From an uncultured bacterium (GTDB lineage Bacteria; Acidobacteriota; JAQAZP01), in the NCBI GenBank assembly GCA_965531145.1, contig CBESOE010000005.1, forward strand, positions 4,762-68,761: a DNA stretch of 64,000 nucleotides, written 5' to 3'. The position numbers and the translations under genes were made by a program. The notes under the pieces are model-generated. The model made no database searches and was not told the origin of the DNA. It was given only the letters and a program-made list of their open reading frames with translations. Positions 13,785 to 50,980 of the stretch are shown in pieces. Numbering within the stretch: the first letter of the stretch is position 1; every line of letters begins with the position of its first letter.

Positions 13785-13795
13785 GATGAGCGGTA

Positions 13796-13828
13796 CCCGC
13801 AGGGGGCGTATTAGCTCCCCCTGCGGGG
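13796..13828. terminator. bidirectional hairpin between convergent genes
   Basis: 11-bp stem cccgcaggggg / ccccctgcggg with a 10-nt loop, between stop 13784 (+) and stop 13881 (-). No strong T-tract follows. Confidence 0.5.
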
Positions 13829-13880
13829 TAATTTCTCTATGGAATCGTTGGAAAAGGTACCGCCCCAGCATCACGGTCCA

Positions 13881-14678
13881 TCAATTGTTCCGTCGCAGCC
13901 AGCGCCAGGAACCACCGATACCGGTGAAGAACTCGCTGCCCTCACCGGTGACCTGGTAGCCGGCACGCCAATCCAATTGGAAGTTGTCGGTGGTGAGCCA
14001 GGTGAGACCACCGTTCACATATCCCGGATCATTGCTCCCGGCTTCGGTATAAACAAACTGATAGTACTCGATGTAACAGCCGACACTGTCGGTGAGGCCA
14101 TATCCCAGAGCGAGGCTGCCCGATAGTTCACCAATGCCCTCGCCTTGCTGACTGATCCAGGCGTAACCGATATTGGTTGAAAGGCCCGCTCTGCCGTTGA
14201 GATCCCAGGCCAGGGCCAGCCTCGCTCCGGGTTCCAGGTGCTTCTCGCCGATCTGGTCACTGCCCGTGGGAATGCCGGTGCCCACCAGCAGAGCCATGCC
14301 CGGCCGCGGGCTGCCCGGCTCGTCCGGGGCCTCCAACAGCATGAATTTGGCTCCGAGAAATACGTTTTCCAATCCGTCATTGCTTTGACCCGGATCGTCC
14401 TGCCAGGCCCAGGAGTTGAGTCCCAGCCGCAGCTCGGCACGACCGCCGAGGGCAGCCCGGAGCAGCAACTCACCCAGAGAATGGCTCTCCACATCGCCAT
14501 CCTTGCCATAGGTATAGCCGAACTCCAATTGAATCCCCCCCCGGGGAACCGTCTCGGCGCTCTCGGTAAAATCGGGCCGGTCGGTGACCAGCGGCGGCAC
14601 TTCATCCGCTCCGGCACAGGGGGCGAACAGCACACAAAAAACCAGGGCCAGCAAACGGATGGTCGACGGGTTCATCAT
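13881..14678 (-). CDS. outer-membrane barrel, MetA-pathway/phenol-degradation-like (transporter) family
   Basis: ORF 13881..14729, with the start moved to ATG 14678 (TGGAGAA upstream). Signal peptide MMNPSTIRLLALVFCVLFAPCAGA, then TDRPDFTESAETVPRGGIQLEFGYTY, the family-typical block. Confidence 0.82.
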   Translation of the reverse strand: MMNPSTIRLLALVFCVLFAPCAGADEVPPLVTDRPDFTESAETVPRGGIQLEFGYTYGKDGDVESHSLGELLLRAALGGRAELRLGLNSWAWQDDPGQSNDGLENVFLGAKFMLLEAPDEPGSPRPGMALLVGTGIPTGSDQIGEKHLEPGARLALAWDLNGRAGLSTNIGYAWISQQGEGIGELSGSLALGYGLTDSVGCYIEYYQFVYTEAGSNDPGYVNGGLTWLTTDNFQLDWRAGYQVTGEGSEFFTGIGGSWRWLRRNN

Positions 14679-14913
14679 ATTCTCCAGGGACAAGAACCGA
14701 TTCAAGGGAGCCCGGCACTTTTGGATCACCGGAACGATCTTCCAAGGGTGTATCGAAAATCGCCACCCCTGTCAATTGTTCGGGCAGAGGCCCATTTGCC
14801 AAACCCAGTTCCAGACTATATTATTTCTATCACTTCCGTGGCGGATTGCTCCGGCGGCCCCCACAACCCCGACGCCGGAACCAGGTGCAAACGAATAGCG
14901 AAAGGACCCTCCG

Positions 14914-16440
14914 ATGCTGCTTCATCACCGTTTCGTGTATTCAGCAAAGAAGCAGGGGAAAAATCCCGCTTTCATCGACCGGTCGGCGGGCAAGACCATC
15001 TCCTGGTCCCGGGCCCTGCTCGCATCCCTGATCCTGGCCAAAAAGTTTCGCCGCTACAGCGAAGGGTTCATCGGCATCATGGTCCCCACCTCGGCCGGCT
15101 GCGGGCTGGCGATCCTCGGTGCGCTGATAAGCGGACGCACACCGGTGATGATCAACTATTCCACCGGCGCCGAGGCCAACGCCAGATTCGCCCAGCGGAA
15201 GTGCGGGTTCCGCACCATCATCACCTCGAAAAAGCTGCTGGAAAAGATCAACTGCCCCCACATCAAGGGAATGATCTACCTCGAAGAAATCATGGACAGC
15301 CTGACCTCCTGGGACAAGGTGCGTGCGGCACTGATCTCAAAGCTGCCCGCGGGCCTGATCACCCGCCGGTTTACCGCAAAGGGTGAGCCGGATGACAACC
15401 TCGTGATCCTCTTCACCAGCGGCAGTGAAAAGGAACCCAAGGCGGTGCAGTTGACCCATCGCAATATCTCGTTCGACATCGAGAGCTTTTGCAAGGTGTT
15501 CCAGATCTCGGAAGGTGACAGGATGATGGCCAACCTGCCCCTCTTTCATGTATTCGGGCTGACGGTCAACTTCTGGACCCCGATCTACCACGGGATAACC
15601 ATGGTCACCTACGCCAATCCCACCGAATACCAGACCGTGGCCCAGATCATCCGTGACGACAAGCCCACCATCCTGGTCAGCACGCCGAGTTTCTTCCAGG
15701 GGTATCTCCGCCGGTCCAAAACCGGTGACTTCGAATCGCTGCGGGTGGTGGTCAGCGGCGCCGACAAATGCCCCGACGCCCTGCGCCAGGGGTATCTGAA
15801 CAAGCACGGGGTCACCCTTTTCGAGGGGTACGGGGCCACCGAAACATCCCCGGTGATCTCCGTCAACTACCCCGGTTTCAACCGGCCGGGCAGCGTGGGC
15901 CGGCCCCTGCCCAACGTGGCCGTCTTTATCGAGAACTACGAGACCGGCGAGAAGTGCGCCCCGGGAGAAGTGGGCCGGATCATGGTCCGCGGCGAGCTGG
16001 TGATGAAGGGCTACTTCGACGATCTCGAGGAAACCGCCATGCGTATCCGCCACGGATGGTATGACACCGGCGACATGGGCTACATCGACGAGGGCGGGTT
16101 TCTCTGGCACTCGGGCCGGCTGAAGCGTTTTGTCAAGATCGGCGGCGAGATGGTCTCCCTGGTCCAGGTAGAGGACCGCATCGAGAAGCTGCTACCCGAC
16201 GACGTGGACTGCTGCGTGGTGGAAATCCCCGACGTGAAGAAGGGGGCGAAGATTATCGCCGTGGTCACCAAGGAAGTGGACGAAAAGGACCTTCGCGCCA
16301 GACTGTCCGAGGAACTGCCCAACATCGCCCTGCCCAGCCAGTACGTGGTGATGGAGAAGATGCCCGAGATGGGCAGCGGCAAGATCGATTTCCGCTCGGT
16401 GACCAACCAGGTCCATGACCAGTTGCTCGACGAAATGTGA
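14914..16440 (+). CDS. AMP-dependent synthetase/ligase (acyl-CoA/acyl-ACP synthetase, Aas-like)
   Basis: 508 aa. AMP-binding motifs LFTSGSEKEPKAVQLTHRNI, GYGATETSP, WYDTGDMG and SGKIDFRS. Confidence 0.9.
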   Translation: MLLHHRFVYSAKKQGKNPAFIDRSAGKTISWSRALLASLILAKKFRRYSEGFIGIMVPTSAGCGLAILGALISGRTPVMINYSTGAEANARFAQRKCGFRTIITSKKLLEKINCPHIKGMIYLEEIMDSLTSWDKVRAALISKLPAGLITRRFTAKGEPDDNLVILFTSGSEKEPKAVQLTHRNISFDIESFCKVFQISEGDRMMANLPLFHVFGLTVNFWTPIYHGITMVTYANPTEYQTVAQIIRDDKPTILVSTPSFFQGYLRRSKTGDFESLRVVVSGADKCPDALRQGYLNKHGVTLFEGYGATETSPVISVNYPGFNRPGSVGRPLPNVAVFIENYETGEKCAPGEVGRIMVRGELVMKGYFDDLEETAMRIRHGWYDTGDMGYIDEGGFLWHSGRLKRFVKIGGEMVSLVQVEDRIEKLLPDDVDCCVVEIPDVKKGAKIIAVVTKEVDEKDLRARLSEELPNIALPSQYVVMEKMPEMGSGKIDFRSVTNQVHDQLLDEM

Positions 16441-16453
16441 GCGGATCACCTGT

Positions 16454-19189
16454 TCATTTCGGCGCCGCCTTGACCACCACCGTCCCCTTGTCCCGCAGCT
16501 CCCCGGCTGAAACGGACACCGTGTATTCACCCGCCGGCACGAATTCGGTCTGGCCGAAGTCCCCCGCCTCGATGCGCGGGATCTGGTGCTTCCCGTCGGC
16601 CTGCAGATCCCAGACCACCCGGTTAAGCCCCGGATAGCCCGGACCGCTGAGCGTCCGCACCACCGTGCCGGTGGCATCGGTGATGGAGATGGAGACCGGG
16701 GTACCCAGGCTCTCGCGCAGCCAGTAGTTGATCGCGGTCCCCGGCGCCGGGTTACGGGCGCGGAAGATGGCGTGACCGGAACCATAGCTGCGCCGCAGGT
16801 AAAACCGCGGGGTGCCGGGCTGGATCTCCAGCAGGGCCAGCGGACGGTCCGTCACCCCGGCGGTCAGGCCGGCGAACATCGAGGAGTCGTCAAGCACGTA
16901 GACCCCCCGGCCGTGGGTGCCGATCACCAGGTCCTTCTCCCGGGGGTGCTGAACGATGTCGTGCACCGCCACCGGCGGCAGGCTCTCACCGTTCATCCGC
17001 ACCCAGTTCCCGCCCCGGTCCAGGCTGACAAAGATGCTGAACTCGGTGCCGGCATAGAGCACCTCCGGATTCCAAAGGTCCTCGCGCACCACCCGCACCG
17101 GCTCGTCGCCGGGGAGGTTGGCGGTGATGTCGGTCCAGCTGCGGCCGGCGTCCCCGGTCATCAGCACCAGCGGCTTGAAGACATCGCTGCGGTGACCATC
17201 CACTGACAGGTAGGCGGTTTCTGGGTCGTGCGCCGAGGGGTGGATCCGGGAGATGTAGAGGCCGTCCACTTCGGCCGGGGTGACCTGTTGCCAGTTCTCC
17301 CCGTCATCGACGGTAACGTGCACCAGCCCGTCGTCGGTGCCGGCCCAGAGCATGCCCTGGCGCAGCGGCGACTCGGCCAGCGCGGTCACCGTGCCGTAGG
17401 TTTCGGCCCCGGAACCGAGGGTCTCGGTCTTGCCCGGTTCGTCCCGGGAGAGATCACCGCTGATGGCGAAGACCAGGTCGCCTCTCCCGGTGAGTTTGAA
17501 GACCCGGTTGCCGCCGTGGTAGAGCACCGACGGGTCGTGAGGCGAGACAAAGAAGGGCGCGTCCCAGTTGAAACGCAGTCTTTCATCTCCTTCCTGGACC
17601 GCCGGACGGATCACCTTCACCACGTTGTTGTCCAGCCGGATGCGGGCCAGGTTGCCGCCCTGGGAAGTGGAGTAGACCAGATTCGGGTCGGTGGGATCGA
17701 AATCGACGGTGAAGCCGTCACCGCCGCTGATCATTCTCCAGTCGGAGTTGAGGATCCCGTCAGCACTCTGGTCGAGGGTCAGAAAACCGGTCTCTGACGG
17801 GCCAAGCCAGGAGCCGTTGTCCTGCAGGCCGCCGGCGATGCGGTAAGGATCGGACATGTCCACCGACACCCGGTAAAACTGGGCGGCGGCCACACTGTCA
17901 TGGAGCCGCCAGGTCCGGGCCCGGTCATGGGAGACGTAGATCCCGCCATCATTGCCCACCAGGATCTGCCTGGTGTCCACCGGATTGATCACGATGGCGT
18001 GGAAATCCACGTGCACGTTCTCGCTGCCCGATCGGCGAAAGGTCCTGCCGCCGTCGTCGGAGATGGCCAGGTCCCACCCGGGGAGGTAGACCCGCTGATC
18101 ATCCTCCGGGTCCACGGCCACCCGCGAGAAATAGAAGGGGCGGAAACTGATGTCAGTGGTTCGCACCCAGGTTTCACCCCGGTCGTCGGTGCGAAACAGT
18201 CCGCCGCTGGGTGAGCGGTTATCCCACTGGGAGTGGCCCCGACCGCCGAAATCGCTCTCCACGTTGGCGTAGAGGATGCTGGTGTCGCCGGGAAAGAGGG
18301 TGAGACCGATGCGGCCGGTGGAAGGCGGCAGCCCGGAGGTCAGTTTCTTCCAGGTGCGTCCGGCATCGTCGGAACGGAAGATCCCCCCCTGCTCGCTGTT
18401 GCCCTTGAAGCTCCAGGCGGTGCGCTTGCGGACATAGAGGGCGGCATAGACGGTGTCCGGATTCGACGGGTCGAGAACCACGTCGCAGGCCCCGGTACGC
18501 TGATCCACTGTCAGTACCTGCTCCCAGGTCTCGCCGCCGTCTCCGGTTTTGAACAGTCCCCGCTCAGGGTTCTCACCCCAGAGGTGCCCCAGGGCCGCCA
18601 CGTAGCAGACATCTGGGTTGCGGGGGTCCACGGCAATGCTGGGGATGTCGTGGGTCTCGGTCAGACCCACGTGTTCGAAGCTGGCCCCGGCGTCGGTGGA
18701 GCGGTAGACCCCGCCACCCCAGGAGGAGCTGTTGCGGCCGTTGCCCTCGCCGGTGCCGACCCAGACGATCTTCCCCTTGCCACGATCCTCGCTCGCTTCG
18801 GCTTCTCCGTCGCCGGCGTTATCCTCATCCTCTGCCGCCCAGCCCGGCCAGTCGGCCGGGGCATCGGCCACGGCCAGGGCCCCGATGGAGAGTACCGGAT
18901 AGTCGTCGAAAACCGGCGAGAAGGTGGTGCCCAGGTTGTCGGTGAAAAAAACACCCCCAGTGGCGTAGCCGACATAAAAACTGGTCCGGCTGCCCGGCAC
19001 CAGGGCGATGGCCGACACCCGGCCGCCCATGTTCGCCGGCCCCACATTGCGCCAGGAGATGCGCTGCAGGTCGGCCTCGTTGAGAACCCGAGCGGATTCC
19101 GATGATTCGGCAGCAAAAACCGCGGCCGGCACCAGAACCGCAAGCAGAACGATGAAGACCACCGGTCGAACGAGATAGTGGTGAGACAT
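16454..19189 (-). CDS. secreted BNR/Asp-box repeat (sortilin/VPS10-like) protein
   Basis: ORF 16454..19204, with the start moved to ATG 19189 (GAGGAG 7 nt upstream). Signal peptide MSHHYLVRPVVFIVLLAVLVPAAVFA. At least 9 Asp-boxes are present, including STDAGASFEHV, TGDGGETWEQV, SDDAGRTWKKL, TDDRGETWVRT, SDDGGRTFRRS, TGDAGRSWTDI and SLDRGGNWVRM. C-terminal Ig-like tail: ISITDATGTVVRTLSG...VWDL...GEYTVSV. Confidence 0.88.
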   Translation of the reverse strand: MSHHYLVRPVVFIVLLAVLVPAAVFAAESSESARVLNEADLQRISWRNVGPANMGGRVSAIALVPGSRTSFYVGYATGGVFFTDNLGTTFSPVFDDYPVLSIGALAVADAPADWPGWAAEDEDNAGDGEAEASEDRGKGKIVWVGTGEGNGRNSSSWGGGVYRSTDAGASFEHVGLTETHDIPSIAVDPRNPDVCYVAALGHLWGENPERGLFKTGDGGETWEQVLTVDQRTGACDVVLDPSNPDTVYAALYVRKRTAWSFKGNSEQGGIFRSDDAGRTWKKLTSGLPPSTGRIGLTLFPGDTSILYANVESDFGGRGHSQWDNRSPSGGLFRTDDRGETWVRTTDISFRPFYFSRVAVDPEDDQRVYLPGWDLAISDDGGRTFRRSGSENVHVDFHAIVINPVDTRQILVGNDGGIYVSHDRARTWRLHDSVAAAQFYRVSVDMSDPYRIAGGLQDNGSWLGPSETGFLTLDQSADGILNSDWRMISGGDGFTVDFDPTDPNLVYSTSQGGNLARIRLDNNVVKVIRPAVQEGDERLRFNWDAPFFVSPHDPSVLYHGGNRVFKLTGRGDLVFAISGDLSRDEPGKTETLGSGAETYGTVTALAESPLRQGMLWAGTDDGLVHVTVDDGENWQQVTPAEVDGLYISRIHPSAHDPETAYLSVDGHRSDVFKPLVLMTGDAGRSWTDITANLPGDEPVRVVREDLWNPEVLYAGTEFSIFVSLDRGGNWVRMNGESLPPVAVHDIVQHPREKDLVIGTHGRGVYVLDDSSMFAGLTAGVTDRPLALLEIQPGTPRFYLRRSYGSGHAIFRARNPAPGTAINYWLRESLGTPVSISITDATGTVVRTLSGPGYPGLNRVVWDLQADGKHQIPRIEAGDFGQTEFVPAGEYTVSVSAGELRDKGTVVVKAAPK

Positions 19190-19338
19190 GGGACTTCTCC
19201 TCATACCGCGGGCCGCGGGAAAACCGATTCAGAATTCTGGCTGGAAATATTTTCCATACTTTAGCATATCAACAGGTTAGGTGACAGGCGGCCGGTGGCT
19301 TTTCCCAGGATAAAACGGCTTGCTTTTCCAACATTATT

Positions 19339-20518: not shown

Positions 20519-20556
20519 TCCCGTACCGCCTCAGACAGCAAAACAGATTCGATGTG

Positions 20557-20590
20557 CACCCCTGGGGGCTCCCCCAGGGGTGTGCCTTTT
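20557..20590 (+). terminator. rho-independent terminator
   Basis: Stem cacccctggggg / cccccaggggtg, followed by tgccTTTT. Confidence 0.7.
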
Positions 20591-20646: not shown

Positions 20647-20675
20647 TTGACTCGTAAGTGATTCTATAATATAAT
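20647..20675 (+). promoter_or_regulatory. sigma-70 promoter TTGACT-N17-TATAAT
   Basis: -35 TTGACT at 20647-20652, a 17-nt spacer, then -10 TATAAT at 20670-20675. About 130 nt upstream of the cytochrome c3-like gene. Confidence 0.6.
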
Positions 20676-20804
20676 TTTATCTTCGTTGTCCGCTGAAGTG
20701 TCACGCCTGCAGCGCTGGTGGCCAAATCGTTCGCCAGGGTTGCTCGCGAAACAGCGCATCATATACTCTGCAAATTCCAAGTCATTATCGGGGAGGACGA
20801 TCAC

Positions 20805-21182
20805 GTGAAGAAGACTCTCAGCCTGGTGGCGTTTCTCGCCCTGGTCAGTGTGCTGGTGATGGCCGCCGAGATTCCGGCGGACAAAGATGTTTTGACCTTC
20901 GATGCAAAAATGGGGAAGGTGACCTTCAAGCACGCCGAGCATGCGAGCAGGATTGGTGACTGCGTGACCTGTCACCACAAAACCGAGGGTGACGCAGTTC
21001 CGCAGCTCTGTTCCGAGTGCCACATGCCCAAGGAGGTCAAGGACGAGGCCCCCAAACTGAAGGACGCCGTGCACCAGAACTGTCAGGGTTGCCACCAGGA
21101 AAAGGCTGACGCCGGCGAGGCCACCGGCCCGCTGAAGAAGAAGTGCAAGGAGTGCCACATCAAGGAGAAGGCGGCCGAGTAG
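20805..21182 (+). CDS. periplasmic tetraheme cytochrome c (c3/class III-like)
   Basis: ORF 20718..21182, with the start moved to GTG 20805 (GGGGAGGA RBS). Signal peptide (V->M)KKTLSLVAFLALVSVLVMA. Four CxxCH motifs (CVTCH, CSECH, CQGCH, CKECH) in about 100 mature residues. FDAKMGKVTFKHAEH is c3/c7-like. Confidence 0.88.
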   Translation: MKKTLSLVAFLALVSVLVMAAEIPADKDVLTFDAKMGKVTFKHAEHASRIGDCVTCHHKTEGDAVPQLCSECHMPKEVKDEAPKLKDAVHQNCQGCHQEKADAGEATGPLKKKCKECHIKEKAAE

Positions 21183-21253
21183 CCTTTTCGCCAGTGCATC
21201 CCACGCACGTCCTTACGGCCTGACCGGCGGTCCGCACCGCGAGGTTTCACTTG

Positions 21254-24166
21254 ATGGTCGTTCGCTTTGACAGTCCCCGTGAGCACCGGGTCGTCCACGG
21301 CCTGGTGCTGATCCTCTCCGCCCTGCTCTGCCTCTCTTCCCTCTCCCCTCTGCTTCAGGCCCAGGAAAACGACGAATGCCTGATGTGCCACGAAGAGTCG
21401 GATATGACCGGCTTCCGTGGGGACCAGGAGATTTCGGTCTATGTCGATCCCGAGCTGTATGGCGATTCGGTCCACGCGGACATGGACTGCATCGACTGCC
21501 ACATCGACCTCAGCGGCATCGAGATGGAGCACGACGAGGACGTGGAGCCGGTGGACTGCTCCATGTGCCATGACGAGCAGGCCGAAATGCACGCGATCTC
21601 GCTGCACGGCCGGGCGGCGGCCCGGGGTGACGCCATGGCCCCCACCTGTGCCGATTGCCACGGTAACCACCACATTCTTTTCTCGTCCGACATCCACTCC
21701 CCCACCAGCAGGCTGAACATCCCGCTGCTCTGCGGCACCTGCCACAGGGAAGGGGCGCCGGTGGAGCGCGACCGGGATATCCCCCAGGACCGGATCCTGG
21801 CCAACTACTCCATGTCGATCCATGGTGAAGGGCTGTTCCTCAAGGGGCTCACCGTCACCGCCGTCTGCACCTCCTGCCACACGGCCCACGAGATCCTGTC
21901 GCACAACGACCCCCGGTCGAGCATCCACCACAACAACGTGGCCGCCACCTGCACCGTCTGTCATGCACGGATCGAGGAAGTGCACGTCAAGGTGATCGAG
22001 GGCCGGCTGTGGGAAGAGGAACCGCACAAGATCCCGGCCTGTGTGGACTGCCACCAGCCGCACGAGATCAGGCGCTCACCGCTCAACCCCAAGCGTGTGG
22101 CCAACAAGGAATGCCTGCATTGCCACGCGGATTCTGAATTGACCATGGATCGGGACGGGGAGCAGGTGTCGCTGTTCATGGACGAAGAGGTGTTCGACCT
22201 TGCCATGCACGCCCAGGTGGCCTGCGCCCAGTGCCACACCGAAGTCGATTCCTCCTCCGAGCGGCCCTGCAGCACGATCACCAAACCGGTCGACTGCGCC
22301 ATCTGCCACGCCGAGGTGGTGACCTGGTACGAGTCGAGCACCCACGGGAAACTGGCGCTGGAAGGGGACCCGGAAGCCCCCGGGTGCCTCTCGTGCCACG
22401 ACCAGCACGCTACGGAAAGCCACCTGCTGCCCACCTCTCCCACGTACAACCACAATGTTCCCGAGCTGTGCGGCACGTGCCACGCCGAAGGCGGCAACGT
22501 GGCCGAGCGGGTGAAAGCCCTGGCCGCCGAGCACATGGACGAGAGCCAGGCCGTGTGCAACGAATGCCACGACCGGGGTCCGCTGGGCGGATCACCCAAT
22601 GTCGTGATGCCCCAGGTCTCCGACATCGTGGGCAGCTATCTGCGCAGCACCCACGGCAAAGGCCTGCTGGAGAGCGGGCTGGCGGTATCGGCCAGCTGTG
22701 TCGACTGTCACACCACACACCGCATGCTGCCGCCCCACGATCCCGAATCCTCGGTCCACCCGGGCAACCTGGCCGACACCTGCGGCGAGTGCCACTCCGG
22801 AATCGCGTCTCAGATCAAGGAGAGCATCCACTGGCCGGAAAACAACGACAAGGGCCCGGTGCCCACCTGTGAGTATTGCCACACCTCGCACTCCATCTGT
22901 CGCACCACCAAGCGCGGTTTCCGGACGATGATGATGAACCGCTGCGGCCACTGCCACGAGAAGGAGGCCGACACCTTCTTCGACACCTTCCACGGCAAGG
23001 TCTCCCGGCTGGGTGAACAGGCGGCAGCCAAGTGCTACGACTGTCATGGGTCGCACAACATCCTGCCCACCAGCGATCCGGCGTCCATGCTCAGCTTTCA
23101 CAACATCGTCGATACCTGCTCCAATTGCCACGAAGGTGCGCACCGGAAGTTCGCCGGGTATCTGACACACGCCACCCACCACGACCCGGAGAAATACCCC
23201 TTCCTCTTCTGGTCCTTCTGGGGGATGACCATCCTGCTGGTGGGTACGCTATCGCTCTCGCTGCTCCACACCCTGGCCTGGCTCTACCGGCTCTGGCGTT
23301 CACGCAAGGAGTGGCGGGCCGTGCACAAACCGGAGCCGGGCGAGAAGTTCTACCGGCGTTTCACTTCGGGCCAGCGGGTGAACCACGCGGTGATGCTGCT
23401 CAGTTTCTTCATCCTCGCCATCACCGGCATGACGCTCAAGTTCTCCTACACCGACTGGGCCCAGGTAGTCTCCAACCTGCTGGGCGGGTTCGAAACCATG
23501 GGCAGCCTGCACCGCTTCGGCGCCATCGTCATGATCACCATCTTCGTCGCCCACCTGTTCAACGTCGGGCGACGTAAAAAAGAGACGGGGCTGTCCTGGT
23601 GGAAATTTATCTTCGGTCCCGGTTCGATGATGTTCAACGGTACCGATTTGAAGGAGCTCATCGGGTCAGTCAAATGGTTCCTCGGCAGGGGGCCGAGACC
23701 ACAGTACGGCCGGTTCACCTACTGGGAAAAATTCGACTACTTCGCGGTCTTCTGGGGAGTCTTCATCATCGGTGGCACCGGGCTTCTGCTCTGGTTCCCG
23801 GAGTTTTTCACCCGGTTCCTGCCCGGCCGCTCGGTAAATGTGGCCACTGTGATCCACAGCGATGAAGCTCTGCTGGCCACGGCGTTCATCTTTACCATTC
23901 ACTTCTTCAACACCCACTTCCGCCCGGACAAGTTCCCCATGGATCCGGTGATTTTCACCGGCCGCGTGCCGCTGGAAGAGCTGAAGCACGACAAGCCCAG
24001 GGAATACGAGCAGATGGTGGCTGAGGGCAAACTGGAGGAGTTGCTGGTGGATCCCTACCCGGACAACGTGGTGAAGATGATGAAGATCTTCGGCTTCACC
24101 GCCCTGGCCACCGGCTTGACCCTGATCCTTCTGATCATCGCTGCCATGACCATCGGCTACAAATAA
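21254..24166 (+). CDS. 20-heme cytochrome c fused to a membrane di-heme cytochrome b (FdnI/HydC-type) domain, CbcL-like
   Basis: 970 aa from ATG 21254. Signal peptide, then 20 CxxCH motifs counted by eye. Next come TM helices with the b-type pattern RFTSGQRVNHAVMLLSFFILAITG, GSLHRFGAIVMITIFVAHLF, YWEKFDYFAVFWGVFIIGGTG and ATVIHSDEALLATAFIFTIHFF, plus a final TM helix. Confidence 0.88.
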   Translation: MVVRFDSPREHRVVHGLVLILSALLCLSSLSPLLQAQENDECLMCHEESDMTGFRGDQEISVYVDPELYGDSVHADMDCIDCHIDLSGIEMEHDEDVEPVDCSMCHDEQAEMHAISLHGRAAARGDAMAPTCADCHGNHHILFSSDIHSPTSRLNIPLLCGTCHREGAPVERDRDIPQDRILANYSMSIHGEGLFLKGLTVTAVCTSCHTAHEILSHNDPRSSIHHNNVAATCTVCHARIEEVHVKVIEGRLWEEEPHKIPACVDCHQPHEIRRSPLNPKRVANKECLHCHADSELTMDRDGEQVSLFMDEEVFDLAMHAQVACAQCHTEVDSSSERPCSTITKPVDCAICHAEVVTWYESSTHGKLALEGDPEAPGCLSCHDQHATESHLLPTSPTYNHNVPELCGTCHAEGGNVAERVKALAAEHMDESQAVCNECHDRGPLGGSPNVVMPQVSDIVGSYLRSTHGKGLLESGLAVSASCVDCHTTHRMLPPHDPESSVHPGNLADTCGECHSGIASQIKESIHWPENNDKGPVPTCEYCHTSHSICRTTKRGFRTMMMNRCGHCHEKEADTFFDTFHGKVSRLGEQAAAKCYDCHGSHNILPTSDPASMLSFHNIVDTCSNCHEGAHRKFAGYLTHATHHDPEKYPFLFWSFWGMTILLVGTLSLSLLHTLAWLYRLWRSRKEWRAVHKPEPGEKFYRRFTSGQRVNHAVMLLSFFILAITGMTLKFSYTDWAQVVSNLLGGFETMGSLHRFGAIVMITIFVAHLFNVGRRKKETGLSWWKFIFGPGSMMFNGTDLKELIGSVKWFLGRGPRPQYGRFTYWEKFDYFAVFWGVFIIGGTGLLLWFPEFFTRFLPGRSVNVATVIHSDEALLATAFIFTIHFFNTHFRPDKFPMDPVIFTGRVPLEELKHDKPREYEQMVAEGKLEELLVDPYPDNVVKMMKIFGFTALATGLTLILLIIAAMTIGYK

Positions 24167-24317
24167 TTCGAATGAAATGGGGTCAGGCACCTTGTTGTTT
24201 CATTCCAAAGACTTTCTTTCGTAGACCAAATCAACTGGCCCGTGCTGGTTCAGGCTGAATGAATACAGATGGTGCCAGGCACCATTCATATTCACAGGAG
24301 TGCGAGAGAATTTCCTG

Positions 24318-26321
24318 CTATTCGCCGGGAGCCTGGTCCGACTCAGGCGGCGGTGACACACTCTCCAACTGCTTGCGCAGCCGCTGCTCGGTCACCTTTC
24401 GTGCTTCATCCACGTGCTCGGGATGCTCGTGGCGATACATCTCCTCGGGCATCAAACCGGTGAGCCAGCTGGGGTTCATCGGGTAAACCGCCGGGTTGAA
24501 CACCGTGGAATAGAGGTGCCAGACCAGGATGGCCAGCGATGCCAGCCAGGCTTCCCAGAAATGGATCACCAGCGCCACATCGAGAAAGCCCTTGGGCAGG
24601 AAACTGATGAACCAGTTGTCGAACCAGAGCAGCAGGCCGGTGACCACCATCACCGCCGTGCCCCAGACCAGCGCCCAGTATTCAGCCTTCTCCACGTAGC
24701 TGAAGCGATGGAATCGGGGGGATTCTTTCCGACGGCCGATACAGTAGAGAATGCGCTGCCAGAACTGGGTGAAATCCGCGGGCAGGGGCATCATGTCCTT
24801 GACGAACTCCCGGCCCCGGCGGCTGGTGGTGAGGTAAAGAACGTGCCAGATCACCGTCATGCTGAAAATCACCGCGGCGAACCGGTGCACCAGGCCTCGC
24901 AGCTCGAACCCCCCTTCCCAACCGAAGAAGACCTTTGCCAGGAAGCTCTCGTCATAGGTCAGGGCAAAGCCGGAAGCCACCAGCGTGATGAAGCTGATCA
25001 TCAGGAAGGTGTGCTGCCAGACCTCGTTGAGCCGCATGCGCCGCACCTGGGGCCGCCGGTTCATCATCAACTTGATGTGCCGGCCCAGGTCAATCAGCCA
25101 GTGAAGCACCATCAGGCCAATGATCACCACGATGGCGATGATGTAGATCTTCTCCACCAGGTCAGCCAGCGGCGTGCGCAGACCCTCCCCGGTGACCCCG
25201 TGGATCGGCATGGCCGCCATCTTCTCCGAGATCCCCGGGTGGCAGTCGCCGCAGGTGTGCTGCAGATTCTCCGGGTGAACCGTGGAGGCGGGGTTGGAGC
25301 TGGGAAGGATCCGGTGCACCCCGTGGCACGAAGCACAGTTGGCCACGTGGGTGTCGCCAGCCTTGCTCTTCAGGCCGTGGTAACTGTCGATAAAGGTGGC
25401 CAGACGGCCGGAACGCAGACCGTATTTTTCGTTGAGGATGGCCGACTCGTGGCAGGGGGAGCAGGTTTCCTCGGCCAACCGGGCGCTGGAGACGGGAGAC
25501 CGCGGGTCGTCTGGAGAAATGATCCCGTGCTCGCCATGGCAGTTGGTGCAGACCGGGGCGTCCGTCTCGCCGCGCTCCACCAGGTGGCCGTGGATTCCCT
25601 CCATGAAGTCGCTTTCCACCCCCCGGTGGCACTTGCCGCAGGTCTGGGGGATGTTGAAGTGGTTGATCGAGGATTCCTGGTGGCCCGGCGACAGGATCTT
25701 GTGTGCCGTGCCACCGGTGGAGTGGCAGTCGTTGCAGGTGGCGGCCACATAGATACCGCCCTTGGCCGCCATGCCGTGGACGCTGCCCTGGTAGATGGCG
25801 ATGGGATTGTCGATGAGGATCTCGTATTTCTTGGTCAGGTCGATGTTTTCGTGGCACTTGCCGCAGGTGGAGGGCAAATTCACCGGGTGGGTCCTGGCCA
25901 GCTTGACGCTGGAGGGCAGCACGTCGTGGTCTCCGTGGCAGTCCTTGCACTGGGGCATATCCTCGCAGGAACCGATGGCCGCACGGCCATGGGCCTGGTA
26001 CTGCTCGCCGGCATCTTCATGACACATCCGGCAGCCCTCGCACCCCACCACGAATTCGGACGTCTCGTCGTGCGGATCCGTGTCCTTGTCGATGTGGCAG
26101 TCGAGGCACTCGAAGTCCCGGTGGATCGAGTGCGAAAGATCTTCCCCGAACTCCGTGCCGTGACTGCTCTCCTCGTGGCACATCACACAGTCTTCGCTGG
26201 TGAGCGCTACGGCATCATCATCCTGGGCCGGCAAACTGACGGCAAAAAGCAAGGGCAGGACAAGGACGAGAAGCCACAGTGCAAAAATCGTGTTCCAGGA
26301 AGTGCCTCGGCATCGGCTCAT
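24318..26321 (-). CDS. 11-heme cytochrome c fused to a membrane cytochrome b domain, CbcL-like paralog
   Basis: 667 aa, ATG 26321 (GGAGG RBS). Signal peptide, then 11 CxxCH motifs. The b-type TM region has a His pattern parallel to its neighbour's (VWQHTFLMISF, GLVHRFAAVIFSMTVIWHVLY, ALVIHFWEAWLASLAILVWHLY). Convergent with 21254..24166. Confidence 0.88.
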   Translation of the reverse strand: MSRCRGTSWNTIFALWLLVLVLPLLFAVSLPAQDDDAVALTSEDCVMCHEESSHGTEFGEDLSHSIHRDFECLDCHIDKDTDPHDETSEFVVGCEGCRMCHEDAGEQYQAHGRAAIGSCEDMPQCKDCHGDHDVLPSSVKLARTHPVNLPSTCGKCHENIDLTKKYEILIDNPIAIYQGSVHGMAAKGGIYVAATCNDCHSTGGTAHKILSPGHQESSINHFNIPQTCGKCHRGVESDFMEGIHGHLVERGETDAPVCTNCHGEHGIISPDDPRSPVSSARLAEETCSPCHESAILNEKYGLRSGRLATFIDSYHGLKSKAGDTHVANCASCHGVHRILPSSNPASTVHPENLQHTCGDCHPGISEKMAAMPIHGVTGEGLRTPLADLVEKIYIIAIVVIIGLMVLHWLIDLGRHIKLMMNRRPQVRRMRLNEVWQHTFLMISFITLVASGFALTYDESFLAKVFFGWEGGFELRGLVHRFAAVIFSMTVIWHVLYLTTSRRGREFVKDMMPLPADFTQFWQRILYCIGRRKESPRFHRFSYVEKAEYWALVWGTAVMVVTGLLLWFDNWFISFLPKGFLDVALVIHFWEAWLASLAILVWHLYSTVFNPAVYPMNPSWLTGLMPEEMYRHEHPEHVDEARKVTEQRLRKQLESVSPPPESDQAPGE

Positions 26322-26770: not shown

Positions 26771-28678
26771 ATGCTGATCCAGACCAGGCAGCGGCCCATC
26801 CTCGGTGTTGTCCTGCTCGCGGTGCTGATCTGTGCCGCAACGGCGGGCGAGGCCCTGGCCCAGGAATACCGCGAACCGGAGGGAACCCCCCTGCCCGAAT
26901 ACGCGCGCAAGATCCACATCGACCGCCCAGTGCCATTCATCGTGGAGAAGGGCATGCGGGGTGCGCCCGAGCTGCCCAACGTCATGATCACCGGGTACTG
27001 GCCGCCGACCAACGAGATGCTGCGCCGTTTCAGTCCCGACCCGGTGCAGAACCCCGACGGCTGGATCGGCGGAAACTGGGAGGGGCGAGGGTTCAATGTC
27101 TACGCCTTTTTCCCCGAATTCCCCGAGGGGCTGGGTCAGGGCGAGGGTGACTTCGAAGTGGACTACCAGGACACCTCGGCGGATTTCTGGCCCATAGCCG
27201 AACAGATCAGACCGGTGGCTATCATCACTTTTGGCCGGGCTTCGCCAAACCGGGATTGGGAGGTGGAGTGGCGCGGACGCAACCTGCCCGAGGCTGACTG
27301 GTTTCCCGACTACGCCGACCCGCGCAAACCCACACCATCCCCGCCCGACGACAGTGTCCCCGACAGCCACATCCGCTACTCCACCCTGCCGATGAATGAC
27401 ATCGTCGACGCCATCAACGACTCGGGGCTGAACATCAACGCCTTTGCCGACACCACCGAGGACGCCGGCGCCTTTCTCTGCGAGTTTGTCGGCTACCATG
27501 CTGCCTGGTATCACGACCTCCACGAATCCGCCGGTGACCCGGATCAGGTCCTCTCCGCCGGCCACATCCACGTGGGGAGCAATATCGGGCTCCCCGATGC
27601 CATTGCCGCCGCCGAGATCACCGTGCGCAGCCTGCTCGACAATCTCGCCCCCTTGCTGGCCCCGCAGGCCGGCCTGATCGCCGGCCCGGGGCCCGCGGAG
27701 AACAATCCGCCCACGGTCCGGGTCTTTGATGCGGAATCGTATGCCGCGCACCGCTACGAGTTCGACGCCTACGGCGTGCCCAAGTATGGCGTCAATGTCT
27801 CCGCCGGCGACCTGGACGGTGACGGGCTGGACGAGATTCTCACCGGCGCCGGGCCAGGCGCGGTCTTCGGCCCCCACGTCCGGGGTTTCGAAGCCTGGGG
27901 CACCCCACTGCCCGGGCTCAGCTTCCTCGCCTACGGCACCAACAAGTACGGGGTGAACGTCTGTGCCGGTGACATCGACGGCGACGGTTTTGACGAGATC
28001 ATCACCGGCGCCGGGCCGGGCGCGGTGTTCGGCCCCCACGTCAGGGCCTGGAACTATGACGGGTCGCCTGGAGTGGCCGCGATACCCGGGGTGAGCTACT
28101 TCGCCTACGGCACCCCGAAGTGGGGGGCCAACGTGGCCTGCGGCGACATCGACGGCGACGGGTTCGACGAGATCGTCACCGGCCCCGGTCCGGGCTCGGT
28201 GTACGGCCCCCACGTCAGGGGCTGGAACGTGGACAACGGCCCGGCCGCCGCCATGCCCACGGTGAGCTACTTCGCCTACGGCACGCTGAAGTTCGGGGTC
28301 AATGTCTGCTGCGGTGACGTGGACGGTGACGGTATGGACGAAATCATCACCGGCGCCGGACCGGGGGCGATCTTCGCCTCCCACGTCCGCGGCTGGAACT
28401 ACGACAACGGCTCCATCGCCTCCCTCCCCGGATTCAGCTACTTTGCCTGGCCCGAGAGCAGTTGCCGCTTCGGAGCCAAGGTCTTCTCCGGTGTGGACCT
28501 GGACGGCGACGGCAGCGACGAGCTGGTGGTGGGCGCAGGCCCCGACCCGGCGGTGGAATCCGCGCTCAAACTCTACCGCTACAACGGCTCGGCGGTCACC
28601 GAATCTCTCTCCCTGCAGCCCTTCCCCGCCGGCTGGACCCACGGTTCCACCGTGGCGGCAGGACGGTTTCAGGACTGA
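26771..28678 (+). CDS. secreted pyroglutamyl-peptidase I (C15)-like domain fused to the C-terminal five-loop propeller module
   Basis: 635 aa, AGGAGG RBS. Signal peptide MLIQTRQRPILGVVLLAVLICAATAGEALA. The head aligns by eye to PGP-I: VMITGYWPP, ITFGRASPNRDWEVEWRGRN (Glu), DAGAFLCEFVGYH (Cys) and SAGHIHVG (His). The C-terminal module is encoded at about 27670-28678 and has 5 DxDxDG loops. Confidence 0.85.
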   Translation: MLIQTRQRPILGVVLLAVLICAATAGEALAQEYREPEGTPLPEYARKIHIDRPVPFIVEKGMRGAPELPNVMITGYWPPTNEMLRRFSPDPVQNPDGWIGGNWEGRGFNVYAFFPEFPEGLGQGEGDFEVDYQDTSADFWPIAEQIRPVAIITFGRASPNRDWEVEWRGRNLPEADWFPDYADPRKPTPSPPDDSVPDSHIRYSTLPMNDIVDAINDSGLNINAFADTTEDAGAFLCEFVGYHAAWYHDLHESAGDPDQVLSAGHIHVGSNIGLPDAIAAAEITVRSLLDNLAPLLAPQAGLIAGPGPAENNPPTVRVFDAESYAAHRYEFDAYGVPKYGVNVSAGDLDGDGLDEILTGAGPGAVFGPHVRGFEAWGTPLPGLSFLAYGTNKYGVNVCAGDIDGDGFDEIITGAGPGAVFGPHVRAWNYDGSPGVAAIPGVSYFAYGTPKWGANVACGDIDGDGFDEIVTGPGPGSVYGPHVRGWNVDNGPAAAMPTVSYFAYGTLKFGVNVCCGDVDGDGMDEIITGAGPGAIFASHVRGWNYDNGSIASLPGFSYFAWPESSCRFGAKVFSGVDLDGDGSDELVVGAGPDPAVESALKLYRYNGSAVTESLSLQPFPAGWTHGSTVAAGRFQD

Positions 28679-36106: not shown

Positions 36107-37258
36107 ATGAACCTGAATCATACCTGGAACGGGATATCCGCGAAGTTCGGCGCTGTTCTCGCGCTGCTCTTTCTTTCAATCTCTTTGTGCAGTCTGGTCC
36201 CGGCCGGGGCGGATGATTTCGGCTACATCGGATCAGATGGAACTCCCTACATCGTCACCGGTCCGGGCACTGGGTCGAACAACGATCCGCTGGTCCGGGT
36301 TTTCGACCCGCTGGCCACCGATGAACCGCTGTCCGAGTGGATAGCCTACGGGGTTCCCCGGTATGGCGCCAACGTGGCGGTGGGCCAGCTGGACGGGGAC
36401 ATGGAACCGGAAGTGATCACCGGGCCGGGGCCCGGATCGCAGTTCGGACCCCACGTGCGTGGTTTTGAGATCGACGGCACGGCGATCGGTGATATCTCAT
36501 TCTTCGCCTATGGCACCGACAAGTGGGGCGTCAACGTGGCCCTTGGTGATCTGGACAATGACGGCATCGATGAAATCGTCACCGGCGCGGGGCCGGGGCC
36601 GATCTACGGCCCCCACGTCCGCGGCTGGAGCTATGACGGCACCGGCGAACCGACGTCCATTACCCAAGTCAACTTCCTGGCCTACGGCTCCTGGAAGTGG
36701 GGGGTCAACGTGGCCTGCGGTGACATCGATGGTGACGGCTTTGACGAAATCGTCACCGGCGGCGGTCCCGGACCGGTCTTCGGCCCCCATGTCCGCGGCT
36801 GGAACTACGACGGCCTGGCCGACACCACCCCCATCGATCAGATCAACTTCATGGCCTACGACTCACGGAAACGGGGGGTCAACGTGGCCTGCGGTGACAT
36901 CGACGGTGACGGCGTGGCGGAGATCATCACCGCTCCGGGTCCCGGTCCGCAATACAGTTCGCACATCAGGGGGTGGCACTGGAACGGTGTCGACCCGGTG
37001 GAGCAGATCGCCGGGGTGGACTTCATCGCCTACAACGGCCGCTACCGCAAGATGGGCGCCAACGTTGGCTGCGCCGACGTGGACGGAGACGGGATCGACG
37101 AGATCCTCACCGGCCCGGGTCCCAAACCGCAATACGATGCCTGGGTAAAGGTGTTCTCCTATGACGGCACAGGTGTGCAGGAGACCATCGACTTCATCGC
37201 CTACGACCCCGATGATTTCAACTACGGGGTGAAGGTCAGCGGGACCAGGGCGCGATAG
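36107..37258 (+). CDS. secreted stand-alone five-loop propeller module protein
   Basis: 383 aa. Signal peptide, then about 20 residues, then the module: IVTGPGTGSNNDPLVRVFDP..., 5 DxDxDG-type loops, ending FIAYDPDDFNYGVKVSGTRAR. Confidence 0.88.
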   Translation: MNLNHTWNGISAKFGAVLALLFLSISLCSLVPAGADDFGYIGSDGTPYIVTGPGTGSNNDPLVRVFDPLATDEPLSEWIAYGVPRYGANVAVGQLDGDMEPEVITGPGPGSQFGPHVRGFEIDGTAIGDISFFAYGTDKWGVNVALGDLDNDGIDEIVTGAGPGPIYGPHVRGWSYDGTGEPTSITQVNFLAYGSWKWGVNVACGDIDGDGFDEIVTGGGPGPVFGPHVRGWNYDGLADTTPIDQINFMAYDSRKRGVNVACGDIDGDGVAEIITAPGPGPQYSSHIRGWHWNGVDPVEQIAGVDFIAYNGRYRKMGANVGCADVDGDGIDEILTGPGPKPQYDAWVKVFSYDGTGVQETIDFIAYDPDDFNYGVKVSGTRAR

Positions 37259-46457: not shown

Positions 46458-46490
46458 ATGCCCGGCGCCCGGCGCGTCGGGCATTTTTAT
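46458..46490 (+). terminator. rho-independent terminator
   Basis: Stem atgcccg(gcgc) ... (gcgc)gtcgggcat, followed by TTTTT. Confidence 0.75.
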
Positions 46491-46526
46491 TTGCGCTACA
46501 ATTGCTCAGACACCTGTGCCGGCAAG

Positions 46527-50852: not shown

Positions 50853-50980
50853 CCATCGACGGTTAGTTCTTGCACTGCGGCCGCTCCACCATAATAATGA
50901 GTTACCCTAGCCAGGGTAGGAGTAGTTTCGGGTTGCCTGTTTCCGCCGTGTGCCGCGGCAGAGGGATTACTGTGAACAAG

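Follow-up and report, generated by a model that had tools for sequence, protein, structure and literature searches.

A compact locus in the window (the whole 64,000-nucleotide stretch of DNA analysed) encodes a small tetraheme cytochrome and two large cytochrome c / cytochrome b fusion proteins. We propose, at a probability of about 0.6, that it is a three-gene respiratory module in which the fusions are inner-membrane quinol:cytochrome c oxidoreductases of the CbcL/MtoC/MtrH type, delivering electrons to extracellular or periplasmic transfer pathways. The domain architecture, membrane topology and heme-ligand conservation of the fusions, and the conserved pairing of their genes, were observed directly.

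Layout of the locus and census of heme-binding motifs

The locus contains the following features.

20554-20585, forward strand: terminator-like hairpin, its 14-bp stem followed by a T-rich stretch, closing the upstream SOD-rhodanese unit
20647-20675, forward strand: putative sigma-70-like promoter, TTGACT-17 nt-TATAAT, lying in an AT-rich spacer and matching 11/12 consensus positions
20805-21182, forward strand: periplasmic tetraheme cytochrome of class III (c3/c7-like) with four CxxCH motifs, 125 aa including a signal peptide
21254-24166, forward strand: fusion of a 20-heme cytochrome c and a di-heme cytochrome b, starting at ATG 21254 (970 aa)
21362-23185, forward strand: periplasmic multiheme c domain of the 20-heme protein, aa 38-645
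22523-22612, forward strand: lineage-specific 30-residue insertion, aa 425-454, holding the 20th motif, CNECH, at aa 436
23198-24163, forward strand: membrane part of the 20-heme protein, aa 650-971, with TM0, an FdnI-like four-helix core and an extra C-terminal helix
24260-24294, no strand assigned: inverted repeat with 17-nt arms and a 1-nt loop
24318-26321, reverse strand: fusion of an 11-heme cytochrome c and a di-heme cytochrome b (667 aa)
24321-25169, reverse strand: membrane part of the 11-heme protein, aa 385-667, with TM0 and an FdnI-like core
25197-26225, reverse strand: periplasmic c domain of the 11-heme protein, aa 33-375, in which 11 CxxCH motifs are matched by 11 invariant non-motif His

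Motif counting revealed three intact open reading frames (ORFs) carrying 4, 20 and 11 CxxCH motifs, 35 in all. The recount reproduced exactly the coordinates and heme numbers given in the original prediction. A motif scan found no CxxxCH, CxxxxCH or CxxCK variants in the three cytochrome ORFs. Elsewhere in the 64-kb window just two CxxCH motifs were present, one per ORF (stop-to-stop ORFs of at least 60 aa, six frames); the 35-motif cluster is therefore far beyond chance. The reading frames extended over 20718-21182 and 21251-24166 on the forward strand and 24318-26321 on the reverse strand (667 aa), and public gene calls start the small ORF at GTG 20805 (125 aa), which is preceded by GGAGG, and the 20-heme ORF at ATG 21254 (970 aa). 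Residue numbers of the 20-heme protein are counted here from TTG 21251; numbering from the ATG is lower by 1.

The upstream rhodanese ORF ends at 20518, and the hairpin at 20554-20585 is the 5' boundary of the cytochrome unit. The putative promoter, recognised by its match to the consensus, had been proposed to stand before the pair of fusion genes. The site is present, with 11 of 12 consensus positions, but it precedes only the c3-like and 20-heme genes; the 11-heme gene lies on the opposite strand. The two fusion genes converge, and the inverted repeat at 24260-24294, inside the 152-nt spacer between their stop codons, may act as a shared terminator. Relatives have a Y1 transposase in this inter-stop spacer, either alone or together with further genes. 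Among the window's ORFs that were scanned there was no porin-cytochrome or other outer-membrane conduit, no terminal reductase and no further cytochrome c or MtrB-like ORF. The reported lack of an adjoining porin-cytochrome gene thus extends to the whole window, which does not contain the MtrCAB-type combination of adjacent MtrB/PioB-like barrel and MtrA/DmsE-like decaheme.

Both large proteins are genuine c-b fusions with an FdnI/HydC-type membrane domain

Each large protein consists of a signal peptide (cleavage sites judged by eye), an exported N-terminal multi-CxxCH c domain, a linker helix and, in the same polypeptide, a C-terminal FdnI/HydC-type cytochrome b. By hydropathy and in the AlphaFold2 (AF2) models, the 20-heme protein has six transmembrane (TM) helices; the 11-heme protein has five, lacks the sixth and ends in the cytoplasm. 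Including the linker helix, these numbers fall within the published range of four to six for CbcL/MtrH/MtoC-type bc-cytochromes, and the signal peptides and helices are positioned as an N-out c domain demands.

The Pfam model PF01292 (Ni_hydr_CYTB) scored above its cut-off of 30.1 in both proteins (31.5 and 58.5 bits), and the NCBIfam FdnI model TIGR01583 matched both below its cut-off. Profile matches to FdnI had E-values of about 1.5e-4, and a Foldseek search with the AF2 model returned FdnI (1kqf_C) as the top PDB match (probability 1.00; TM-score 0.74, target-normalised). The original prediction had read a four-histidine FdnI/HydC pattern by eye. All four FdnI ligands, H18, H57, H155 and H169, aligned with invariant His: H712, H754, H869 and H884 in the 20-heme protein, and H437, H479, H587 and H602 in the 11-heme protein. 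These residues, on TM1, TM2 and TM4, were invariant in 50/50 b domains of both families; in a set of 134 representatives obtained by clustering at 50% identity, 130-133 retain them. Together, the domain matches, the alignment and the Foldseek result bear out the proposed CbcL-type architecture for both proteins.

Origin of the fusions in a frameshift or missed stop is rejected: neither ORF is interrupted, and thousands of full-length homologs have the same fused layout. True two-gene versions were found only in a few distant relatives, with a clean split in the cytoplasmic loop. A third b heme, held by additional His on TM0 and TM2, is unlikely; Y/F/W and Q/Y/N occur there instead in 10-19% of representatives.

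Composition of the c domains

In the 20-heme c domain an 8-heme module (aa 42-276) is followed by a second copy of itself (aa 287-552), and a 3-heme part completes the domain. The two modules share 36% identity (E = 2e-45), and on this sequence similarity we conclude that the large c domain arose through internal duplication of the 8-heme module. The protein has 19 heme motifs in its core, alongside 20 invariant His outside the motifs. Its 20th motif lies in the insertion at aa 425-454, which is missing from 19-, 21- and 23-heme relatives, is common only to a 91%-identical relative and was modelled at pLDDT <50.

The two fusions are paralogs, with 28% identity over aa 40-661 (E = 2e-76). The nearest available sequence proxy for CbcL, a 9-heme representative with CbcL-like spacing rather than GSU0274 itself, shares 37% identity with the 11-heme protein (E = 5e-93). 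In both window proteins the invariant extra His equal or exceed the core motifs (20 versus 19; 11 versus 11), which fits the nine His-His hemes of CbcL (PMC13591261).

The c domains were modelled at pLDDT 35-85, with the 11-heme domain at the poor end (35-60), and the AF2 model of the 20-heme protein, built without hemes, had a pTM of 0.45. Foldseek with the c domain gave no meaningful matches, because the model is heme-free and of moderate confidence, and a PDB search with the single 11-heme sequence gave none. Profile comparison revealed weak similarity (E = 1e-4 to 5e-6) to 6r2q_A, which we take to be MtrA, and to MtrF, the dodecaheme 3ov0 and NrfB; a DmsE-family model scored 69 bits, below its cut-off.

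The small cytochrome is of the c3 type

The 125-residue protein matched PF02085 (class III cytochrome c) at 55.5 bits against a cut-off of 22.9 (E = 8e-15), and scored below the cut-offs of the specific NCBIfam equivalogs for c7 and TmcA. Its best PDB relatives were the c3-type domains of Desulfovibrio HmcA (E = 6e-22), with c3 and c7/PpcA also matched. Its eight His are sufficient for four bis-His hemes, and with its four CxxCH motifs it fits the c3 class, in which four bis-His hemes are bound by a mature protein of about 100 aa. The c3-like assignment made from the sequence by eye therefore stands on both the PF02085 match and the c3-type PDB relatives. The gene lies 71 nt upstream of the 20-heme gene and is conserved in the closest relatives.

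Distribution and gene neighbourhoods in relatives

The family was present in at least 593 species genomes from Acidobacteriota, Gemmatimonadota, Woeseiaceae, Ignavibacteria and others. A survey of CbcL/MtrH/MtoC homologs with 3 to 23 CxxCH motifs (Zhong & Shi 2018, PMC6295460, Table S2) already includes 11-, 19-, 20- and 23-heme forms, and both window proteins have the heme spacing of entries in that table. The long 20-heme version, singled out as notable in the original prediction, is thus real and conserved, but its architecture had been catalogued. No experimental characterisation of long forms was found in the literature searched. The design being already catalogued, what is new here is the module duplication, the insertion-borne 20th heme, the conserved pairing and the MtrA/MtrB-like neighbours in relatives.

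The long-plus-11-heme pair was present in 26 of the 42 loci with adequate flanks. The locus of one relative, L001, holds a DmsE-family decaheme and a GSU2204-family MtrB/PioB-like barrel between the two fusion genes (PF11854, 30.3 bits; TIGR03508, the DmsE-family decaheme model, 248 bits; NF041027, 560 bits). Barrel-like proteins akin to that of L001 were detected by blastp in L008, L067, L075 and L080 (24-27% identity), and similar decahemes in 13 loci. Between close relatives, fast divergence was confined to the long gene. A 503-aa protein beside the Gemmatimonadota homologs was also considered as an MtrB-type barrel; this was unsupported (hhalign probability 14%, no Pfam or NCBIfam matches).

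Comparison with known systems

The closest likeness is to CbcL (GSU0274) of Geobacter sulfurreducens, which shares the N-terminal periplasmic bis-His multiheme c domain, the linker helix and the HydC/FdnI-like di-heme b domain; its last three hemes are also spaced alike (43/42 and 28 residues). Neither CbcL nor the window proteins have FeS, flavin or Mo subunits, and each has a small periplasmic cytochrome as its likely partner (PpcA for CbcL, the c3-like protein here). They differ in size and host: CbcL, from Desulfuromonadia, has nine hemes, 619 aa and six TM helices, whereas the proteins of the Acidobacteriota-like hosts have 11 hemes (667 aa, five TM) or 20 hemes (970 aa, six TM). The role of CbcL below -0.1 V is established by genetics, whereas that of the window proteins is predicted.

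MtoC and MtrH, found in mtoAB/mtrAB clusters of Fe(II) oxidisers and Rhodoferax, have the same c-b fusion architecture, and relatives of the window locus likewise adjoin MtrA/DmsE-family decahemes and MtrB/PioB-like barrels. In contrast, MtoC and MtrH carry nine hemes, and no mtrAB-like genes adjoin the fusions in the window. The 19-, 20-, 23- and 11-heme homologs of Table S2 (among them MAF27600.1 from Gemmatimonadetes; 'BMS3Abin04 fdoI', GBD91784.1; Opitutus terrae Oter_2603) match in heme spacing and TM layout and belong to the same subfamilies, differing from the long window protein by its one additional CxxCH in the insertion at aa 425-454. Zhong & Shi (2018) took the proteins singly; the present analysis adds their conserved pairing and their origin by module duplication.

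FdnI, the gamma subunit of Escherichia coli formate dehydrogenase-N (1KQF chain C), and HydC/HyaC share the four-helix bundle and all four His ligands, and the loop in the quinone-site region of FdnI is strongly conserved here (Y824, E826 and K827 in the long protein). FdnI stands as a subunit of its own and docks to FeS and Mo subunits, whereas the window b domains are fused through an extra helix to multiheme c. It also lacks the extra His on TM2 and TM0 that are present in about 90% and 81% of family members, respectively. The Qrc, Tmc and Hmc complexes of sulfate reducers likewise combine a tetraheme c3-type cytochrome with a membrane multiheme quinone-interacting module, but they use NrfD-like/HdrE-like membrane subunits and FeS proteins and have no FdnI-type b fused to c.

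Proposed direction of electron flow and alternatives

In our favoured model, electrons flow outward, and we infer the quinol substrate, the direction and the acceptor by analogy. A Sec signal peptide would export the N-terminal domain, in which 20 (or 11) c hemes, all probably bis-His, would form an electron-transfer chain. The TM0 linker helix would bring the polypeptide back to the cytoplasmic side, and in the four-helix FdnI/HydC-type bundle His on TM1, TM2 and TM4 would ligate two b hemes, one above the other across the membrane. As in FdnI and CbcL, the site of (mena)quinol oxidation would lie near the cytoplasmic-side b heme, and electrons would cross the membrane through the two b hemes to the c-heme chain. 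The next carrier could be the tetraheme c3-type shuttle, predicted to be co-transcribed, or the chain could reach outer-membrane conduits encoded outside the window without an intermediary; Fe(III)/Mn(IV) oxides are examples of the extracellular or periplasmic acceptors at the end. The paralogs are ancient and probably differ in the redox-potential window or the partner that each serves, like ImcH, CbcL and CbcBA in Geobacter.

Outward flow is favoured because CbcL reduces the small periplasmic cytochrome PpcA and a c3/c7-like gene, conserved in the closest relatives, stands just upstream here, and because MtrA/MtrB-like modules lie beside the fusion genes in relatives. Against it, genes for an outer-membrane conduit or a terminal reductase are missing from the window, and the low to moderate confidence of the c-domain models applies here. 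The FdnI-type bundle also places the quinone site on the cytoplasmic side, where quinol oxidation releases protons inside and conserves no energy, as argued for CbcL (10.1101/2022.08.31.506072); the outward direction would thus conserve none while the reverse would, which counts against the model.

Inward flow is a realistic, though minority, possibility. Electrons from a periplasmic or extracellular donor would pass through the c hemes and b hemes to quinone, reduced at the cytoplasmic-side site with consumption of cytoplasmic protons. This would form an FdnI-like energy-conserving half redox loop, either MtoC-like or as a cytochrome c3:quinone oxidoreductase. The donor could be Fe(II), reduced sulfur or, by way of the c3-type cytochrome, H2 or formate. 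In formate dehydrogenase-N, electrons run inward to quinone at the cytoplasmic side, and the window b domains retain FdnI ligand geometry and topology. Desulfovibrio cytochromes of the c3/HmcA type, the nearest relatives of the partner cytochrome, take up electrons at periplasmic dehydrogenases and deliver them to quinone reductases in the membrane (Qrc/Tmc/Hmc). CbcL homologs (MtoC, MtrH) also occur in Fe(II) oxidisers, so that direction cannot be read from the sequence. The upstream rhodanese gene is weak evidence for inward flow. However, the ORF scan of the window found neither an Fe(II) oxidase nor a formate dehydrogenase or hydrogenase of the periplasm, the best-studied relative, CbcL, is a quinol oxidase, and the host phyla are mostly described as sediment organotrophs.

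A doubtful further reading is that the pair forms a two-range respiratory device, with a shuttle-free 19-23-heme wire of sufficient length to reach across most of the periplasm and dock directly on outer-membrane conduits, and the 11-heme protein working through soluble carriers or in the opposite direction. If so, repeated module duplication and fast long-gene divergence would represent tuning of wire length and surface to envelopes and partners, and extracellular electron exchange would be widespread and unstudied in abundant marine-sediment phyla (Woeseiaceae, Gemmatimonadota, Thermoanaerobaculia).

It is quite unlikely that the 19-23-heme c domain is a wire spanning the periplasm and joining the inner-membrane quinone pool to outer-membrane conduits without soluble shuttles, or an electron store in redox-oscillating sediments, with the 11-heme protein as the short, shuttle-using version. 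Heme number does rise from 11 to 19, 21 and 23 by module duplication and insertion while the b domain stays constant, and the weak resemblance to linear wire cytochromes and the DmsE-family model, the outer-membrane modules in relatives and the rapid divergence of the long gene alone are consistent with it. However, the predicted co-transcription of a dedicated small shuttle cytochrome with the 20-heme gene argues against a shuttle-free design in this lineage.

That the c domains are catalytic enzymes (HAO, octaheme reductase, NrfA-like) on a quinone-reactive anchor, and not plain wires, is hardly credible: profile matches to hydroxylamine oxidoreductases and nitrite reductases (E = 1e-4 to 1e-2) and to a tetrathionate-reductase octaheme model (E = 1e-3) fall far below family cut-offs and are limited to generic heme-packing segments, all core motifs are standard CxxCH with at least as many invariant extra His available as sixth ligands, and there is no CxxCK or other active-site motif.

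Significance

To our knowledge, few gates are known that link the quinone pool to extracellular electron transfer; CbcL-type bc-cytochromes are among them, and we know of studies only on the 9-heme Geobacter protein. The long (19-23-heme) and 11-heme forms, often as an adjacent pair, occur in at least several hundred sediment and soil species in which metal or electrode respiration is largely unexplored, and the predicted paired quinol-cytochrome module may help to flag members of these phyla that could exchange electrons with minerals. The natural length variants lend themselves to the study of heme-wire construction by module duplication, and the fusions are clear targets for expression and structural work. 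In public annotation these proteins appear as 'cytochrome b subunit of formate dehydrogenase'.

Gene content of the cytochrome locus

A scripted motif count returned exactly the 35 CxxCH motifs (4 + 20 + 11) and the coordinates of the original prediction, all in three intact open reading frames (ORFs) that contained no variant heme motifs.

Features of the cytochrome locus
20647-20675, + strand: promoter-like TTGACT-17-TATAAT, 11/12 consensus matches
20805-21182, + strand: small cytochrome gene, intact ORF, 4 CxxCH
21254(21251)-24166, + strand: 20-heme cytochrome c-b fusion gene (long gene), 970/971 codons, intact ORF, 20 CxxCH
24318-26321, - strand: 11-heme c-b fusion gene, 667 codons, convergent to the long gene, intact ORF, 11 CxxCH

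These starts agree with the public gene calls on identical contigs, which predict a small protein of 125 aa and a long protein of 970 aa; residues of the latter are numbered here from the TTG at 21251. A sigma-70 promoter had been proposed to serve the pair of fusions. The site is present, but it precedes only the c3 and 20-heme genes. A strong terminator-like hairpin closes the gene unit upstream of the cytochromes, and the 152-nt spacer between the convergent genes (window 24167-24317) carries an inverted repeat with 17-nt arms.

The small protein was rightly labelled c3-like: it matched the class III cytochrome c family PF02085 in Pfam (E 8e-15), and among solved structures it was closest to the c3-type domains of Desulfovibrio HmcA (E 6e-22), with c3 and Geobacter c7/PpcA next. 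It contains exactly 8 His, enough for four bis-His hemes.

Analysis of six-frame stop-to-stop ORFs across the whole 64 kb revealed only two isolated CxxCH motifs elsewhere and no further cytochrome c gene. The other window genes are unrelated and include an AMP-binding enzyme, a BNR/sortilin-like protein, an Fe/Mn SOD, a rhodanese, FG-GAP proteins, a metallo-beta-lactamase fold protein, a sulfatase and a sigma-54 activator. Large secreted proteins of the BNR/sortilin-like and FG-GAP repeat types are unusually numerous in the window (16454-19204, 26771-28678, 36107-37258, 46458-49733 and 50870-54241), and two long ORFs (7685-10813, - strand; 42576-45158, + strand) had no Pfam match.

Both fusions carry FdnI-type di-heme cytochrome b domains

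Both large proteins matched PF01292 (Ni_hydr_CYTB) above its cut-off, together with multiheme c families, and matched the FdnI model TIGR01583 below its cut-off. Hydropathy and AlphaFold2 gave the same layout for each: an N-terminal signal sequence, then the c domain, the linker helix TM0, a cytoplasmic loop with positive charge and four core helices, with a sixth, C-terminal helix in the 20-heme protein only. This is the arrangement that a periplasmic c domain plus an FdnI-like N-in/C-in core would require. The best Foldseek PDB match of the long-protein model (mean pLDDT 70; b part 80-90) was 1kqf_C (prob 1.00, TM 0.74 normalised to target).

The b domains of 25 + 25 sequences from the two families were aligned with E. 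coli FdnI (from NC_000913); profiles of both families matched FdnI at E ~1.5e-4. FdnI H18, H57, H155 and H169 reportedly bind the pair of b hemes in 1KQF (Jormakka et al. 2002). In the alignment these residues corresponded to H712, H754, H869 and H884 in the 20-heme protein and to H437, H479, H587 and H602 in its 11-heme paralog. All four were invariant in 50/50 b domains, and each position was His in 130-133 of 134 representatives clustered at 50% identity. The predicted correspondence with the FdnI ligands thus held in both proteins.

Two further His are absent from FdnI. One lies on TM2 (H768 in the 20-heme and H493 in the 11-heme protein; 121/134 representatives, 90%, otherwise Q/Y/N) and one on TM0 (H673 and H407; 109/134, 81%, otherwise Y/F/W). 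Because of these replacements, H768 and H673 are unlikely to be ligands of a third b heme; the extra TM2 and TM0 His may line the quinone site or serve packing.

The long c domain contains a duplicated module

Sequence comparison identified the two fusions as paralogs, as predicted: the 11-heme protein aligned to the C-terminal two thirds of the long protein (28% identity, E 2e-76) and also to its N-terminal module (30% identity, E 2e-40). The long protein also has an internal repeat, aa 42-276 aligning to aa 287-552 (36% identity, E 2e-45). The internal repeat and both 11-heme alignments indicate that the long form arose from an 11-heme-like ancestor by duplication of an 8-heme module.

A comparison of 56 aligned homologs revealed 19 core heme columns. 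Forms with 21 and 23 hemes have two or four extra hemes between hemes 3 and 4. The heme at aa 436, within a 30-residue insertion that is a low-confidence region of the AlphaFold2 model, was confined to the window protein and a relative 91% identical to it. Invariant non-motif His numbered 20 for the 19 core hemes of the long family and 11 for the 11 hemes of the paralog. These counts are consistent with c domains that are all-bis-His wires, matching CbcL, all nine hemes of which were measured as bis-His (PMC13591261).

Among solved structures, the closest match in sequence to the c-domain module was PDB 28pb chain A, a 278-aa 'Cytochrome c' (profile E 2.8e-9) with hemes spaced much as in the N-terminal part of CbcL-type c domains.

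Relationship to CbcL and predicted function

Zhong & Shi 2018 (PMC6295460) reported CbcL/MtrH/MtoC homologs in 15 phyla, with 3-23 CxxCH, 416-1034 aa and mostly six TM helices. Their Table S2 lists 19-heme proteins (e.g. Gemmatimonadetes MAF27600.1), 20- and 23-heme proteins, and 11-heme proteins (e.g. Opitutus terrae Oter_2603). The CbcL family as catalogued there therefore already includes both architectures, in agreement with the CbcL-type architecture first proposed. MAF27600.1 has the same heme spacing as the window protein except for the insertion in the latter. The nearest proxy for CbcL itself, a representative of 606 aa whose nine motifs have a CbcL-like arrangement, was 37% identical to the 11-heme protein. 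No experimental work on the long and 11-heme forms was found in the literature searched.

The locus very probably encodes a periplasmic tetraheme partner and two fusions, in each of which an FdnI-type di-heme cytochrome b is joined to a bis-His multiheme chain in the periplasm. By analogy with CbcL, for which electron transfer to PpcA has been shown, both fusions would work as quinol:cytochrome c oxidoreductases that supply acceptors in the periplasm or outside the cell (probability roughly 0.6), and the two ancient paralogs would work at different potentials or with different partners. Work on CbcL describes the same b motif and notes that, with the quinone site on the cytoplasmic side, oxidising quinol would contribute nothing to the proton motive force (10.1101/2022.08.31.506072). 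The main rival, which we consider less likely, is inward electron flow to quinone. For an FdnI-type b domain this would be the energy-conserving direction, and MtoC and c3-dependent systems hint at it. The long chain could possibly span the periplasm or serve as a capacitor, whereas a catalytic role of the c domains is unlikely.

Distribution and genomic context of relatives

The long protein has at least 3598 database homologs, the best 120 all full length (56-91% identity), and the 11-heme protein at least 7047, the best 120 all with exactly 11 motifs. An exhaustive search of representatives clustered at 50% identity gave 4917 clusters with E <= 1e-3, of which 869 reached E <= 1e-30. When one genome per species was scanned, relatives of the long protein occurred in at least 593 genomes, with an Acidobacteriota MAG as the top match (65%). 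The best 80 genomes came from Acidobacteriota (Thermoanaerobaculia, Sulfomarinibacteraceae and Polarisedimenticolaceae), Gemmatimonadota, Woeseiaceae, Zixibacteria, Ignavibacteria, Bacteroidota and others. Public names of homologs ('cytochrome b subunit of formate dehydrogenase', 'predicted CXXCH cytochrome family protein', 'cytochrome c3 family protein', 'hypothetical protein') omit their bc-fusion nature.

The intact ORFs and full-length best homologs speak for true fusions rather than a missed stop or frameshift. Two distant relatives have two-gene versions (loci L077, 10001-12922, and L078, 6356-9220), in which a 19-heme cytochrome, with TM0 as its C-terminal anchor helix, is followed by a separate FdnI-like b subunit. 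The split falls within the cytoplasmic loop, where a stop codon precedes a ribosome-binding site and an ATG; this shows that the c and b parts are true modules.

L001, the closest long contig, is syntenic with the window and has five genes inserted between the convergent c-b genes (12908-17560): a Y1 (IS200/IS605-type) transposase, a 106-aa ORF, a GSU2204-family MtrB/PioB-like barrel, a GSU2203/DmsE-family decaheme and an ArsR-type regulator. In another relative (L084, 4156-5022) a Y1 transposase alone occupies this spacer. Compared with L001 and a second syntenic relative, L002, the neighbour genes and the 11-heme paralog had 85-91% protein identity and the long gene 65-66%, evenly along its length. 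This low identity suggests either that recombination or transfer replaced the allele or that the long wire has evolved much faster.

An 11-heme (occasionally 13-heme) paralog was present in 26/42 loci with at least 5 kb on both flanks, and across all 81 loci 28 of 37 such paralogs lay within 700 bp of the long gene. The pair is convergent in the window's lineage and co-directional in most Gemmatimonadota and Woeseiaceae. Also recurrent nearby in the 81 loci were MtrA-like decahemes (13 loci), NapC/NirT-like pentahemes (21), 12-heme cytochromes (21) and octaheme cytochromes (14); the upstream c3 gene was kept only in the closest relatives. The structural reading of the locus was correct, for a kind of protein already known from the CbcL family; what is new here is that the long form arose by module duplication, that its 20th heme is lineage-specific, that the pairing is conserved and that outer-membrane modules recur in relatives.

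A ~503-aa secreted protein without a Pfam or NCBIfam match is conserved in 19 Gemmatimonadota-type loci (e.g. L042, 4014-5525), where it comes immediately after the long gene and next to a 12-heme cytochrome; its relation to MtrB was not detectable (hhalign probability 14%). In 12 loci (L021, L023 and L048 among them; e.g. L023, 6636-8636), the long fusion has a 21-heme cytochrome of 666 aa, NapC/NirT-like at its N-terminus, in the neighbourhood, and in L021, L023 and L048 a stand-alone b subunit of ~300 aa is directly upstream of the fusion. The 21-heme cytochrome and stand-alone b subunit may form a third type of quinol-linked multiheme module.
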